This document shows, in pieces, positions 1 to 6,492 of a stretch of DNA of 25,360 bases. How positions within the stretch are numbered: position 1 is the stretch's first letter; every line of letters begins with the position of its first letter. The stretch is from a virus (Duplodnaviria; Heunggongvirae; Uroviricota; Caudoviricetes): positions 1-25,360 of the IMG/VR virus record IMGVR_UViG_2778261536_000005. One strand, written 5' to 3'. The position numbers were made by a program, and so were the translations under genes. Under the pieces are notes generated by a model, which was not told the origin of the DNA, made no database searches, and saw nothing but the letters and a program-made list of their open reading frames with translations.

Positions 1-612
1 CTACGCCTCCGGCAGTTCAGGCCAGATGACATCCGGCGCGGTGCTGGTATCTGTTGCCGTCACCGCGTCAATGTAATCCAGCACAGCGTTAAGGCGGGTT
101 GTTTCTGCCTGCGTCAGTTTACGTCCGGCCTGCAATTTCAGCTGAATCAGACTGATGGAGGCCATTGCAGTATCAATCAGCGACTGGCGCTGTGCTTCTG
201 CTGCATCTACTGCTGCGCCGTGCTGTGCCTCGGTATCCGTCACCCATTTCTCACCATCCCATTTATCGTATGGGGTTAACGGGGCGATAGTGGTTGTATT
301 ATCAGGGTAATCACCCGGAGCTGTGATTTCTTTTGATTCCCCTGTTTCGGTGCTAAAAACGATTTCACCGCGATGGTCTGGCACATATTCCCATGAGTTA
401 AAATCTGCAGAACGGCAGATTGCATAACCAGCTTTATGTGTAACTGGTGCATCTAAACAAGAACATGCCGGGATACCGACACCAACGGCAAGATATTCAG
501 TTGATGTGGAAATATATTCCCGCGTTTCACCGCTGTAGTTGTAAACGGTGATGAAGCCAGCTTCTGTTGCAAATCCGTTTTCATCCAAAGTGATTTTTTT
601 TGTGGTCATCAT
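1..612 (-). CDS. tfa: tail fibre assembly protein (Tfa-like chaperone)
   Basis: 203 aa ORF; C-terminal ...KWDGEKWV...TSTAPDVIWPELP resembles lambda Tfa as recalled; ATGA overlap with the upstream fibre gene. Confidence 0.8.
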   Translation of the reverse strand: MMTTKKITLDENGFATEAGFITVYNYSGETREYISTSTEYLAVGVGIPACSCLDAPVTHKAGYAICRSADFNSWEYVPDHRGEIVFSTETGESKEITAPGDYPDNTTTIAPLTPYDKWDGEKWVTDTEAQHGAAVDAAEAQRQSLIDTAMASISLIQLKLQAGRKLTQAETTRLNAVLDYIDAVTATDTSTAPDVIWPELPEA

Positions 613-1562
613 GATGCCCTTACAATGTAGTTAAATGCAATGTTACGTGGTCGGTTTTCTTCCGCAGTTGGTACAACTCTGGCGGCGGAAAAACCTACGT
701 CATACCTACTACCGGGCGATGAGGTTGTTTGACCAGCGCCGCCTTCGTATACAGCATAAAATGCCCCTGTTACCCACTCGTCTGCTGTCATCTGGCTTCC
801 CGCAGTGGTCATAAGTCCCAAGAGCTTCCCTGATATGTCCCTTATAGCATCACCTTGTGCGGACAGCAGCGCTCGCCCTGAATCGACCCCACGCCCGTCA
901 TCCCAGCCACGAATAAACTCACCACGTAAATCTGGCAATTTATTTGTTGGATAAGCCTTTGCCAGTTCCGGGTATTCTTCAGCAGAAAAAACCGCACCGT
1001 TGCATTTCAGCCAGCCTGTTGGCGGAGTGGCGGAAGGCCACGGAACAGGGACACCAACAGGTAATGCAGAGCCTTCTCCCAAACCAAGGTTTGTGCGAGC
1101 GTCTGCGGCATTCGTTGCGCCGGTTCCGCCGTCTGCGACAGTAACCGCACCGTTGCTCCCTTTCTGCGCAAGTTTACCGATGCCTGGGATGGTTACGGCG
1201 GTGCCGTTGATGGTAACTGTGATGCTTTGGTTTGCTGAGGTTGTGGCGAACGTCTCCCACGCACCAATATTCTCGTCATACTCCTTGATAAGCTGCGACA
1301 TGGCCAGCGCCAGCCCATCAACCGAGATATTGTCTGATACCAGAATTCCATACTTCTGGCCGCTCAGCGCAGGGGAAGCAGCTGGAGTAACCGTCATTGA
1401 CGTGGCGCTGTTCACGGATGAAATCTGAAACAGCTGCACCGGGTTAGACATCACGATAATCGTCTGGCCAGCGCGAACCTGGCTGGCGGGTGCCGTCCAG
1501 TTCGTGCCCGTGCCGGTGGCGCTGTTTCCGTTAATGGCGATGGTTCCAGTGTTATAAAGCAT
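609..1562 (-). CDS. tail fibre protein with C-terminal phage tail-collar-like domain
   Basis: Gly/Thr-rich N-terminal repeats and a C-terminal PWP...GWLxCNG...LPDLRG motif. Track ORF starts at 1607, but that extension contains a hairpin plus T-run; the ATG near 1562 has a GGAGA RBS and is preferred. Confidence 0.7.
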   Translation of the reverse strand: MLYNTGTIAINGNSATGTGTNWTAPASQVRAGQTIIVMSNPVQLFQISSVNSATSMTVTPAASPALSGQKYGILVSDNISVDGLALAMSQLIKEYDENIGAWETFATTSANQSITVTINGTAVTIPGIGKLAQKGSNGAVTVADGGTGATNAADARTNLGLGEGSALPVGVPVPWPSATPPTGWLKCNGAVFSAEEYPELAKAYPTNKLPDLRGEFIRGWDDGRGVDSGRALLSAQGDAIRDISGKLLGLMTTAGSQMTADEWVTGAFYAVYEGGAGQTTSSPGSRYDVGFSAARVVPTAEENRPRNIAFNYIVRAS

Positions 1563-1577
1563 ATTTTCTCCAGGCAA

Positions 1578-1606
1578 TAAAAAACCCCGCCGAGGCGAGG
1601 TTTGCA
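1578..1606 (-). terminator. intrinsic terminator-like hairpin between lipoprotein gene and tail fibre gene
   Basis: Minus strand reads CCTCGC-CTCG-GCGGGG followed by TTTTTT, then an RBS and ATG. Coordinates approximate. Confidence 0.5.
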
Positions 1607-1620
1607 TTGAAAATCATGAG

Positions 1621-1854
1621 TTATTTACATGTCGTGCTTGTGAATGTGTTCGCACTTACCCAGCGCCAGTTAAAGGGATATCCGGCCCGGTATTGCGTCT
1701 GGTTGTTTTGCTTTCGAACGGCGTAAATCATAACGGTATTCTCATGGCCACCCATATATGCCGTGCCGCTGCAAATCGGTTTCTGTTTCTCAAGTACACC
1801 AGCGCAACCAGACAGCATTAAAGCGCCCGCTATGCAGATAATTAGCCTTTTCAT
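1621..1854 (-). CDS. small lipoprotein (signal peptide plus lipobox LSGC); possible Cor-like superinfection exclusion protein
   Basis: 77 aa; N-terminal MKRLIICIAGALMLSGC is a typical lipoprotein signal; AT-rich upstream region. Cor-like role is inferred only from position in the fibre region. Confidence 0.7.
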   Translation of the reverse strand: MKRLIICIAGALMLSGCAGVLEKQKPICSGTAYMGGHENTVMIYAVRKQNNQTQYRAGYPFNWRWVSANTFTSTTCK

Positions 1855-1961
1855 TTTGATAGTATCCAGAGGTATTCAGTAGCTTCGAAGATACCAATAC
1901 ATAATCGATGGATATAATTGATTAGATAGATAAATTATTTGTTATTGATCGCTCAAAACAA

Positions 1962-2600
1962 TCAATCATAGGCGTCTGTTTTAATTGCTGTCAGGATAAT
2001 TCCATTATTTATCACCCCTCCAGCACCGCCAGGTGTATTTGCGGCTGTACCGGCGTTTATTCTTGTACTTGTGCCTGAATACCTACAAGATGAGTAAGCG
2101 TCGTTTCTGTTCACTTGCCCCAGCCTTGATGGAGCCACTGCCCATGAACCATCAAGCGTCTGGTCAATGTTAATCCCGCCGTTTGCTCCAGGCGTTCCGA
2201 TTGTCTGCAAGTCTGACAGCACGCGGGACTCATTAGTGAGTACCAGCTTCCCGCTCGAATCCCAGATGGCCATCCCCCATTTCGGTAACGTCTGGGGAAA
2301 TATGGCAAAAATATATGCGGTTAACGTGAAGCTCTGGTTATAGGGATTAACCCCCGCGACATATATATTTCCGCCGTTCCGGTAAGATATTACTGGCGTG
2401 GGCTGGGCGGTATTTGTGGTCCTGATAAATACCATCACAGGGTAGTCAGCATTTAATGCAATATTCTGAGCAACCTGCTGCGAACTGCCATTAGCAGAGG
2501 AGTTGAAAGTGTACTTGCCGTAAAGACAAAAAGGCGTTGACTGGGGCGTTACAAATGGGTTCCCGTTGTCCATTAATATCATCGCGCCAAATTCGGCCAT
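1962..2600 (-). CDS. hypothetical protein, tandem of two domains related to the adjacent 100 aa ORF
   Basis: 212 aa ORF; TAATG coupling with the upstream ORF; motif WDxSGK occurs internally and at the N-terminus of its neighbour. Confidence 0.6.
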   Translation of the reverse strand: MAEFGAMILMDNGNPFVTPQSTPFCLYGKYTFNSSANGSSQQVAQNIALNADYPVMVFIRTTNTAQPTPVISYRNGGNIYVAGVNPYNQSFTLTAYIFAIFPQTLPKWGMAIWDSSGKLVLTNESRVLSDLQTIGTPGANGGINIDQTLDGSWAVAPSRLGQVNRNDAYSSCRYSGTSTRINAGTAANTPGGAGGVINNGIILTAIKTDAYD

Positions 2601-2902
2601 TATGCTTTCTCCATGAAAACGACCACTTCACACTTTGAGGCCGGATAATTACCCAGACCTACAGAAGATGCAGCGCTTACGGTTATTGTGCTCCCTGACG
2701 CGACAATGCGCCGCCCTACGCTGTTACCTCCTTCATCAAGTGAAAGAACAAAACCAACTTTCATTCCTGAGGGCACCGTAAAAGACCAGCTGCCGGAGGT
2801 TTGCCCGGCAGCCAGCTGTATTCGCCCAACGACGGAAACGGGTTTGATGCCATAGTTGTTGGGTTTTCCTGAAGCATCCCAGGTCTGTATTCCATAAGCC
2901 AT
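2600..2902 (-). CDS. hypothetical protein, paralogous to the 212 aa neighbour
   Basis: 100 aa ORF starting directly after the J stop with a GGGAG RBS; N-terminus MAYGIQTWDASGKP resembles motifs in the next ORF. Confidence 0.6.
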   Translation of the reverse strand: MAYGIQTWDASGKPNNYGIKPVSVVGRIQLAAGQTSGSWSFTVPSGMKVGFVLSLDEGGNSVGRRIVASGSTITVSAASSVGLGNYPASKCEVVVFMEKA

Positions 2903-2903
2903 T

Positions 2904-5900
2904 TCAGAATACTCCCGTTAATCGGCCAACCTGCACCCTAAGAACATTACTGCCATCTTTGACGCTGATCGTCTGATTTGTCAGTTTCATGGCTCCCTCA
3001 CCAGCAGTCGAACCGTAGTTCTCAAACGTCCCCCCTTTATCAAGCTTCCAGCCAGCAGAACCAGCAACATAATTGTTCGACTGGATAAAATTACCAATCT
3101 TTGCGTTGCTGATAGTGCCGTCCTGGATGAAACTGGCCCGGATGAATGTCTGTCCATTCTGGATCACAAACGGCAAAGCCACGCTATTTCCGGCTGCCGT
3201 GGTGACGGCGAAGCGATCAGCCAGGAAGATAACCTGCGACTGCATGCCGGATGGCGTATTCTCCACGCCGATACCCATCCCCGCGGCGTAATACTGACCG
3301 TTGCTGGAAACGCCAACCTTGATGTTGTACATCGCGCTGAGGTCGCCATTAACGTTGGCTATCGCCTGAGCGTTAGTGGTGATGGCGGAGGTATGCCCGT
3401 TCACCGTCGCCGTTATGCCGTTTATCTGCGTGGCCGTAGCCTGCTGATAGTCGGAGAACGTCTGATTCAGGCTATTGATGGATGCCTTGTTGCCGTTGAC
3501 GTCCGTCTGCAGGCTAAGCAGCGAGCGCGCCGTTGCCTCCCTGTCGTTGACAATCACCTCATCAATACGGTCCAGATTCGCGCTGTTGCCGGCGACCGAT
3601 GCAGACAGGGTTTTACGCGCAGCCACCTGCGCCAGCCCGTTCTGGATAATGGCAATGGCTGAGTTCTTGACCCCACCCGTCATGCCGTCCATAGACACAC
3701 TGATGCTGTCGATTCGCTGGCCCAGCGCGGTATCAGCCGTCGCAACGGTCTGCTCAAGCTGACTGAGTGAAGACGAAACATTCCCGACCGTGCTGGAAAG
3801 CTCATTAACGCTGGTCTGAACCTTCCCGACGTCCTGGGCGTTTTTGGCGATATCCTTCGCATGCTGCTCAAGTTCATCATTGGCCTGTTTGATGTCGTCA
3901 GCCATGCCAGCAATTTTTTCATTGCTGTCCACAGCGTTCTCGATCAGGTCTTTGAACGTCTCAGACCCTTTGATGTCTTCAAGGATCACATCTGTGATGT
4001 CAGAAACATCGATACTGGCCTGCCCACGAACCCAGCCGGTATAACCTGACTCGTTACCGCTGCGGTCAACCAGCTGCGCGCGGTACCAGAAAATCTGCCC
4101 AGCCTTAAGGCCCATCTGCTGATATTTGCGCTGCGGGTAAGGCACATCGGCCAGCAGCATGGCATCGTCTTCAGTACCGGTCAGGCTGTACTGAATTTCC
4201 GTCTTCAGCGTGTCGTCGGTATTCGCCGGGAATCCCCAGTTCAGCTCGATACCGAACACCACGTTTTCAGAGGCGATAAAGCCAACAGGCTTCGGTGGAT
4301 TGCCCACTTTACCCGTCAGCGTTTTCTCTTCTGAATAGCCCCATCCGGATGAAATTTCTGCGGCATTGATTGCGCGCACCCGCACCAGGTAGCGCCCGGC
4401 ATAAATCCCCGGGACGTCGAATGACGTGGTGGAGGTGCGCGGCACGTTAACCCAGTTCCCGTCGTTGCGGCGCCATTGCGCTTCATAGGCGATAGCGTTC
4501 TGCGCCTGGTCCCAGCTCACGCGCATTGTTTCGACGCTGATATTTTGCTGAACCACGGAAAACGAGCTGATCACGATGTTCGCAGGCGGCGACTGGTTAC
4601 CAGGCGGGATCACGCTCACCGGCCGCTGGTCAATGATGGCTCCGGTATCGATGCGGGCATATTTATCCGGGTCGTGCCATGCGCCGGTGATTGAGAAAGT
4701 GCCATCACCGTTGTCGGAGACGCTGACAACACGATACTGCTGCGCGTAAAGCTCGTCAGATTCAACCACCCAAACAGCTTCGGCCTGTGGCGTCTCACTG
4801 TATGCCGTGGTGACTGTGACTGATTCCCCGTTCACGGCCTGAATGGTCCTGCTCTGCGACGCTCCGGAAGGTAGGTTGAGAATAAGGCGATCACCTGGTG
4901 CTGCATCAGCTACGCGGTCAAGTTTGATAACGCGACCGTTAACGGCGCTGATGCGGCCGCCCATAACCTTTCCGGAAAGCAGCTCGTCTGCCACGGCGAT
5001 GATGTAGCCCGGCTGCGGAATGTTTCCGTCCAGCCCGACATCAAACGAAACAACGCGATCCTTGTTATTGGTGAGAATACCCCAGCGCCCCTTTCGGTTC
5101 GCCTCTGACTGCCTGGTGCAGCCGATGGCTGTCATTTCCAGCTGATTGAAGCCGTACCGCGCCACCAGCGCCTGCTCAAATACCGGCTCCATCGCGTCGG
5201 CATAAGCGTTACCCGGGTCTGACCATGAAACCAGCGCTGTGGTGTAGCGGCTTTTCGTGGTGCTGCTCGAATAGGTGAAGCGACCGCCAACAACGTTAGC
5301 GCGCGTATAGCTGTAATCAACATCGCGCGGCATGTCAGCCAGGGCCACAATCTGATCCCCGCCCCAGTAGGTCATGCCACGGAAGATAGCGGCAAAATCA
5401 CGCAGGACTGTGTAGGCGTCGTTCCGGTCCTGAATGTACACGTTGCAGGTATAACGTGGTTCTGTACCGTTGCCCCCTTTGCCGTCTGGTACCATCTGAT
5501 CACAATACTGAGCAACCTGATAAAGCGTCCATTTATCAATATTCGCAGCGGTCAAACGGTGCCCAAGGCCGAACCGGTCAGAAACAACCAGGTCGTAAAA
5601 AATCCACGCAGGGTTATCCGTCCATGCCCACTTAAACGCACCGGTCCATGTACCGCTATAAGTGCGGGTTTCAGGGTCGTAGGTATCTGGAACGCGGATA
5701 ACGCGGCCGCGCGGTTCGCATGAAATTTGAGGAATAGAGCCGTTGAACTGGCTTGAGTCGAATTCGACGTAGAGCAGCGCGGTGTTCGGGTAGCGCAGTT
5801 TGGCGTCAATCACCTCGGTGAAGCTCTGCAGCATCATCGTGTCGCCGATCTTCGCGCTGTTGGCGTCAGAGGTAATCTTACGCAGACGTATTGTCCAGGT

Positions 5901-6461: not shown

Positions 6462-6492
6462 CCCATAAAAAAGCCACCCGAAGGTGGCCAGA
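6462..6492 (-). terminator. terminator-like hairpin between I and J
   Basis: Plus strand CATAAAAAAGCCACC-CGAA-GGTGGC; on the minus strand the stem is followed by TTTTTTAT and then the J start. Coordinates approximate. Confidence 0.5.

Follow-up and report, generated by a model that had tools for sequence, protein, structure and literature searches.

A candidate FhuA-type receptor-recognition cassette behind the tail tip gene J of an HK022-like siphophage

The two open reading frames that follow the tail tip gene J in the phage DNA studied here probably constitute the FhuA-type receptor-recognition cassette of an HK022-like siphophage, forming a tail-tip module that would recognize the E. coli receptor FhuA, a reading to which we assign a probability of roughly 0.7. 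Judged from the sequences, receptor recognition at the tail tip is very probably the function of the pair. A first-pass annotation had suggested a receptor-binding role among other options, and this suggestion gains support from homology to a siphophage receptor-binding protein of known structure. The pair itself is already known: it has been noted since 2006 and was proposed as a receptor-binding locus between 2021 and 2026 (PMC13164509, PMC8594841, PMC12309495, bioRxiv 10.64898/2026.04.02.716166). New in the present analysis are the homology to DUF6453 proteins, the internal paralogy, the split versus fused architecture and the switching of J-tip alleles with the cassette type.

The window, i.e. 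the whole stretch of 25,360 nucleotides analysed here (IMG/VR record IMGVR_UViG_2778261536_000005), is the structural arm of an HK022-like lambdoid coliphage and is read on the minus strand. It shares 98-100% identity with HK022-group phages. For most of its length the identity with mEpX2 and HK022 is about 98%, and over bases 1600-3000 it amounts to 100% with HK446, HK106, mEpX1 and mEp234 and to 99.8% with HK022. Phages of the HK022 group are reported to be FhuA-dependent, according to a statement cited in PMC13164509. In minus-strand order, J is followed by a 100-aa ORF (the small protein), a 212-aa ORF (the large protein), the Cor lipoprotein, a side tail fibre and a Tfa-type protein (Table 1). 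Both ORFs lie where the first-pass annotation had placed them, on the minus strand and directly 3' of the 1183-aa J homologue, and the peptides quoted there were all found, namely MAYGIQTWDASGKP at residues 1-14 of the small protein as well as MAEFGAMILMDNGNPF and WGMAIWDSSGKLVL at residues 1-16 and 108-121 of the large one.

Table 1. Features of the J-cassette-cor region and its flanks, in positions of the window
Feature	Position	Strand	Basis or remark
Tail tip protein J, trimeric central fibre, 1183 aa	2904..6455	-	ORF list; NCBIfam lambda_TipJ E 1e-159
Last 50 codons of J, proposed docking tip	2907..3056	-	Allele tracks downstream cassette type
Small cassette protein, 100 aa, PHROG 557	2600..2902	-	ORF list; PHROG 557 match
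Hairpin motif, small protein residues 3-16, YGIQTWDASGKPNN	2855..2896	-	Nearly invariant in family
Large cassette protein, 212 aa, PHROG 425	1962..2600	-	ORF list; PHROG 425 match
N-terminal hairpin, large protein residues 4-17, FGAMILMDNGNPFV	2550..2591	-	Conserved block, family alignment
Internal hairpin, large protein residues 108-121, WGMAIWDSSGKLVL	2238..2279	-	Opens C-terminal unit
C-terminal unit of large protein, residues 106-212	1965..2285	-	Variable; inferred receptor-contact part
Sigma-70-like promoter match CTGACA-18-TATGAT	1965..1994	-	10/12 consensus positions; consensus match only
Cor lipoprotein, 77 aa	1621..1854	-	NCBIfam lamb_exclu_cor; PHROG 1119
Intrinsic terminator after cor	1582..1603	-	9-bp stem then T run
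Side tail fibre with Collar domain, 332 aa as listed	609-1607	-	ORF list and domain match
Tfa-type assembly protein	1-612	-	ORF list and domain match

At the J/small junction, which reads ...GGAGTATTC-TGA-A-ATG (...TTC-TGA-A-ATG) in the minus-strand sequence, a single base separates the J stop from the start of the small ORF, with GGGAG 10 nt upstream of this start. The small/large junction, GGAGAAAGCA-TAATG (...GCA-TAATG), has a 1-base stop/start overlap, and GGAG is located 8-10 nt upstream at each of the two junctions. The translational coupling that had been proposed for both ORFs after J is therefore borne out by the TGA-A-ATG and TAATG arrangements. The gene order in the window is thus J, the small gene after 1 nt, the large gene with a 1-nt overlap and, 107 nt later, cor. 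The Cor sequence scored 138.8 bits against the NCBIfam model lamb_exclu_cor (NF047972; cutoff 31) and carries a lipobox, LSGC, in MKRLIICIAGALMLSGC behind a signal peptide with a KD19 of 2.09. The promoter match upstream of cor lies at the end of the large ORF and is followed by a 105-nt AT-rich spacer, and the terminator behind cor is annotated in HK446, HK106 and mEp234. Cor is a separate moron downstream of the pair and the only gene at the locus that behaves as one.

Both cassette proteins belong to their families over the full length, the small protein matching phrog_557 with its residues 1-99 of 100 (E 2.4e-36) and the large protein matching phrog_425 with residues 1-212 (E 9.7e-75). Scans of both proteins against Pfam, NCBIfam and PADLOC gave no usable match, and PDB sequence searches with the single sequences and with the large-family profile returned noise only. 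The Pfam and PHROG profile searches also confirmed the earlier remark that neither protein resembles lom, stf or tfa. The structure models of the two proteins are of moderate confidence; for the small protein, the AF2 model (pLDDT 78) consists of an N-terminal hairpin and one beta-sandwich, and its Foldseek search against BFVD yielded only weak matches to other phage proteins of about 100 aa (best E 3e-3). The large family comprises 124 clusters at 50% identity among 1.84 billion proteins, nearly all members having 205-240 aa, and no natural fusion of small and large protein was present among the 124 representative clusters. Three sequences considered as genuine fusions (P0340, P0218 and P0226) were rejected; in them, the C-terminal part of the large protein is attached to fragments of J or of other tail proteins, which probably reflects chimeric assembly or prophage decay.

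The hairpins and the N-terminal part are the best conserved portions of the large family, the region 161-200 is variable and bears indels, and distant members match profile positions 1-128 only. Identity with the phi80 proteins is 100% for the small protein (gp22) and 82% for the large one (gp23), and the large protein shares 50% of its residues with its T1 counterpart. With 212 aa, the HK022-type large protein is 12 residues shorter than the 224-aa majority form, the difference being situated in the C-terminal unit. The missing residues, which are present in phi80 and most relatives, map to positions 1965-2110 of the window (residues ~163-212 of the large protein). Since the J tip is likewise 100% identical to that of phi80, only residues ~163-212 of the large protein differ between these FhuA phages.

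The motif WDxSGK, which had been seen in both proteins by eye, is real. Its general form is [FYW]-G-h-x-h-x-[DN]-x-x-G, it is predicted to fold as a beta-hairpin, and it opens each unit; the internal copy of the large protein lies within a conserved stretch of the family (91-160, with the conservation peak in bin 121-130). Single-sequence BLASTP of small versus large protein found an 11-residue match (E 0.018) and narrow family profiles a match of 14 columns (E 9e-5), and unit-versus-unit hhalign with such narrow profiles suggested that the hairpin alone is common to the units. This was overturned by broader profiles, the small one resting on 9 diverse sequences and the large one on 100 non-redundant sequences obtained by homology and representative searches. 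With them, the small protein aligned with residues 1-87 of the large protein at a probability of 95.9% (E 6e-9, 79 columns), in register from Met1 and with a score of 46.2 in comparison to 14.2+-2.1 (maximum 19.7) for block-shuffled controls, i.e. 15 SD above. When the first 20 residues were trimmed, the score against the N-terminal unit was still 22.2 versus a null of 10.7+-1.8. By these matches, the small protein and the first unit of the large protein are paralogous.

The C-terminal half of the large protein, in the segment WGMAIWDSSGK, aligned with the small protein over 27 columns (92%, E 6e-7; score 37.8 versus 20.9+-3.5, maximum 33.8, for block-shuffled sequences), and the two halves of the large protein aligned with each other over 33 columns (89%, E 2e-6, score 33.3, a value that has no shuffled control). 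Similarity of the small protein to the body of the C-terminal unit was not detectable with the broad profiles. As far as these alignments indicate, the second unit has its opening hairpin and approximately 15 further residues in common with the small protein. The idea of the first-pass annotation that the large protein is a tandem of two domains related to the small one consequently holds in part: there are two units, each led by a hairpin, and the N-terminal one is paralogous to the small protein, whereas the C-terminal one matches it in its first ~27-33 residues and shows no detectable similarity in its body.

[quoted passage not shown] Direct binding to LptDE has been shown for the Oekolampad RBP, and in 9RPT its tail-proximal part is disordered and its C-terminal residues contact LptD (PMC12685063). 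Comparison of the large family with DUF6453, profile against profile, gave a probability of 94.9% (E 4.7e-8) and aligned residues 47-164 of the large protein with Rtp44 149-260. By fold, too, the large protein is related to a solved DUF6453 member. The window protein on its own gave no match to PF20051 (gathering score 25 bits) at E<=1. With an own-built DUF6453 HMM, about 30 proteins of the large family were recovered at E values below 1e-3, in a single consistent register; P0403, which is a distant member of this family and has J-small-large synteny, matched Pfam DUF6453 with 22.5 bits (E 8.3e-5), and, in the reverse direction, the DUF6453 member ORF24 of phage PY54, which carries PVYGLAIWNRAGQ, matched the large-family HMM with E 3e-5.

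The DUF6453 alignment contains three hairpin-like motifs about 100 residues apart. Its unit 2 aligned with the N-terminal half of the large protein (E 7e-4) and its unit 3 with the C-terminal half (E 2e-6, with the internal hairpin aligned), and the N-terminal hairpin of the large protein could also be aligned to that of unit 1 (E 5e-4). By sequence, the large protein thus corresponds to DUF6453 units 2 and 3. A DUF6453 protein has all three hairpin-led units in one chain of 311-344 aa and binds LptD, whereas the cassette of the window has two units in 212 aa, the third paralogous unit being a separate 100-aa ORF, and is found in phages that use FhuA. Taken together, the small and the large protein have 312 aa, compared to 311 for Rtp44. 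In 9 of 9 DUF6453 loci the DUF6453 gene is next to J and no small ORF lies between the two, which puts the small gene of the window in the position of unit 1. The resemblance of the small protein to this unit is limited to position and hairpin-level similarity (E 0.004-0.02), and profile comparison of the small family with DUF6453 gave no significance past the first 15 residues. A PSSM of the FhuA-cassette hairpins recovered units 1 and 3 of DUF6453 proteins (33% of top-3 picks versus ~9% by chance), rarely unit 2, and in no sequence all three, a result that supports the three-hairpin correspondence only partly.

Some DUF6453 loci have features of their own. The 340-aa DUF6453 protein ORF24 of the Yersinia phage PY54 (L008 2489-3511) has a third hairpin, YGLAIWNRAGQ, and is accompanied by a J tip (MKITNQTISV...), which both resemble FhuA-type versions; on sequence grounds, PY54 appears to be intermediate between the fused and the split architecture. 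In Rtp (L001 26752-27917), CY1, e4/1c, ChristophMerian and BF9 (L001, L002, L003, L006, L007), the DUF6453 gene has the reverse orientation and points towards J. In Rtp, CY1, e4/1c and BF9 the inversion also takes in a small ORF, for which the Rtp and BF9 annotations give a lipoprotein.

All 11 loci of the sample kept the order J-small-large, mostly with a stop codon that overlaps the next start, and in every locus examined the two genes are co-directional with J and adjoin it. Besides the window, the sample comprised the lambdoid phage phi80, the unclassified Erwinia phage Midgardsormr38, bob (Dhillonvirus), five Drexlerviridae (T1, PGN590, SLUR29, herni and the Klebsiella phage Sushi) and two uncultured contigs (L015 and L016), and thus included virulent phages. 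In the same loci cor was found on either strand, was absent or was replaced by an Ail/Lom gene: it is on the opposite strand in T1 and bob, and it is missing from the Sushi locus, in which the cassette is present. The coupling to J in the late operon and the conservation in virulent T1-like phages speak against the alternative of the first-pass annotation that the pair is an inserted cargo module. In contig L015 (4844-5599), the cassette is followed by a gene for an Ail/Lom-family outer-membrane protein and a HicAB pair and there is no cor, an arrangement that has been described for Stx phage 24B.

Previous work has linked these genes to FhuA. As far as the citation in PMC13164509 conveys, the cassette was noted in T1, HK022, N15, ES18 and phi80, all of them FhuA-dependent (Wietzorrek 2006). 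It was later called a "bona fide RBP locus" with an allele that predicts the receptor (PMC8594841; bioRxiv 10.64898/2026.04.02.716166), and every FhuA-dependent small siphophage examined carries this allele of the cassette (PMC8594841; bioRxiv 10.64898/2026.04.02.716166; PMC13164509). The locus described in T1, phi80, N15 and Dhillonvirus (PHROG 557, PHROG 425 and cor) has the families and gene order of the window and shows no essential difference from it, the HK022-type large protein having 212 instead of 224 aa.

A further link between the cassette and the tail tip comes from J itself, whose last ~50 residues exist as two alleles that follow the cassette type. When phages with different cassettes were compared (bob versus BF9 within Dhillonvirus, Sushi versus TAH8 within Webervirus), J was 88-89% identical between residues -160 and -50 and 38% identical in the last 50 residues. 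Conversely, phages of different families with the same small and large cassette were 57-76% identical in the last 50 residues versus 32-48% upstream. Such a switch is expected if the J tip is a docking site that is exchanged together with the cassette, and the pattern agrees with a k-mer result reported recently (bioRxiv 10.64898/2026.04.02.716166).

We therefore propose the following scenario, starting from the observation that distant relatives keep positions 1-128 of the large family and from the geometry of 9RPT (PMC12685063), which both suggest N-terminal docking and a C-terminal contact to FhuA. The small and the large protein would be expressed along with J as part of the late tail operon. 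The large protein is probably a soluble, beta-rich and presumably monomeric receptor-binding protein, homologous to the DUF6453 proteins with which Rtp and Oekolampad bind LptD but reduced to units 2 and 3. It would sit non-covalently on the last ~50 residues of the J trimer via its conserved N-terminal part and the hairpins, and its variable C-terminal unit would contact the outer face of FhuA. In the monomer models, the hairpins have low confidence (pLDDT 49-57 for the N-terminal and <50 for the internal hairpin of the large protein, and low values for that of the small protein); high conservation combined with low model confidence is the pattern of a segment that is ordered only on a partner. 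The 100-aa protein would most likely be the third subunit of the tip complex, in place of DUF6453 unit 1. Cor, having its own putative promoter and terminator, would block FhuA from the periplasm in lysogens and infected cells, thereby excluding other FhuA phages. FhuA-type binding has been derived from AlphaFold predictions (PMC12309495; bioRxiv 10.64898/2026.04.02.716166), and AlphaFold-Multimer docked a homologous "hand-like" large protein on the J tip and FhuA (PMC12309495). Our literature searches retrieved no virion proteomics and no host-range mutations mapping to the small or large gene.

It is also conceivable, although unlikely in our view, that the small protein is absent from the virion and serves as a Tfa-like assembly chaperone or adaptor for folding of the large protein or its loading on the J tip, the large protein still being the RBP. 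The position of the small gene, always immediately upstream of the large gene and coupled to it, would fit such a role, as would the fact that DUF6453-type loci manage without a small protein and the inconsistent placement of the small protein by AlphaFold-Multimer (PMC12309495). However, the small protein is paralogous to a structural unit of the large protein and has the same conserved hairpin, which points to a shared binding partner and not to the fold of a chaperone, and Pfam and PHROG searches revealed no similarity to Caudo_TAP or other chaperone families. Moreover, a virion band of ~13 kDa, the identity of which was not assigned, was reported for a phage with a homologous cassette (PMC12309495).

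Another possibility, which we regard as quite improbable, is that J itself binds FhuA and the pair represents accessory lectin-like tip modules, used for instance for a reversible first contact with LPS. In phage lambda, the C-terminal receptor-binding domain of J has the same place in the virion as the proposed cassette and the same task of recognizing an outer-membrane protein; it belongs to the J chain itself and, as a trimer, matches trimeric LamB. In contrast, the window J is proposed to end in a short docking tip, with recognition handed to separate proteins.

Very improbable is the assumption that the two proteins are membrane or outer-membrane proteins acting with Cor in superinfection exclusion. 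It is in line with the adjacency of cor and the PHROG labels "outer membrane protein" and "membrane associated protein", and the 2026 paper on KanT1, which found no structural matches, assumed a superinfection-exclusion role for the pair (PMC13164509). However, no signal peptide, lipobox, transmembrane or hydrophobic segment was present in either protein (KD19 maxima of 1.27 and 0.82 versus 2.09 for Cor), so that annotations as membrane proteins look wrong, and neither had an OMP beta-barrel or Ail_Lom match in Pfam or, in PADLOC, any match. The computed membrane affinity is low (PMC12309495). Furthermore, the pair is homologous to a receptor-binding protein, and its translation is coupled to that of J within the late operon. 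By contrast, a promoter-like site and a terminator of its own flank cor, which, as described above for T1, bob and Sushi, changes strand or is absent. Finally, that two unrelated proteins have the WDxSGK motif in common by chance, as the short BLASTP hit and the narrow profiles that are blank beyond the hairpin might suggest, is ruled out for practical purposes by the broad-profile alignment of 79 in-register columns with its shuffled controls, by its persistence without the hairpin, and by the conservation of the motif in both families and its recurrence at the starts of DUF6453 units.

Returning to the proposed receptor-recognition cassette, a more detailed model of its architecture is possible but doubtful. 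The module could be a pseudo-trimer of three paralogous units, each composed of a hairpin and a beta-sandwich, in which each hairpin docks one J chain so that three-fold symmetry would be turned into a single asymmetric receptor face, the units being fused in DUF6453 proteins and split at TAATG in the window.

The arrangement proposed here resembles that of phage T5, in which FhuA is bound by the monomeric RBP pb5, attached through non-covalent contacts to the end of a trimeric tip, and in which the small periplasmic lipoprotein Llp confers exclusion as Cor does. In isolated pb5 as well as in the RBP of 9RPT, the tail-proximal part is disordered (PMC9586334, PMC12685063). With about 640 aa and a gene located elsewhere in the T5 genome, pb5 is an analogue of the large protein and not a homologue, and PDB sequence and fold searches with the window proteins yielded no similarity to pb5. 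To our knowledge, T1, phi80 and HK022 are classic FhuA phages in which the protein touching FhuA has never been pinned down by experiment. With a soluble 212-aa candidate that has an LptD binder of known structure as a homologue, this question becomes directly testable. The analysis also corrects widespread "membrane protein" annotations, links two receptor-binding families that were called unrelated in a 2026 preprint (bioRxiv 10.64898/2026.04.02.716166), and suggests a compact swap unit for phage retargeting, consisting of the last ~50 residues of J and the cassette.

Three additional observations were made outside the cassette. The start codon listed for the 332-aa side tail fibre ORF, ATG 1607, is upstream of the stem-loop of the cor terminator (1603-1582), and the ORF as listed therefore reads through this terminator on the minus strand. 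A second ATG at 1562 (MLYNTG...), with GGAGAAAA ahead of it, lies just past the terminator and is the more plausible start. Similarity of the window to HK022 and mEpX2 begins only at about base 1077-1153, which indicates a different lineage as the origin of the Tfa gene and of the C-terminal portion of the fibre; both are HK106/mEpX1-like, with a mosaic junction inside the fibre gene. Between the start of J and the 202-aa ORF upstream of it, at 6472-6489, the minus strand carries a strong terminator-like hairpin (GGCCACCTTCGGGTGGCT, then TTTTTAT), at a position within what is presumed to be a single late operon.
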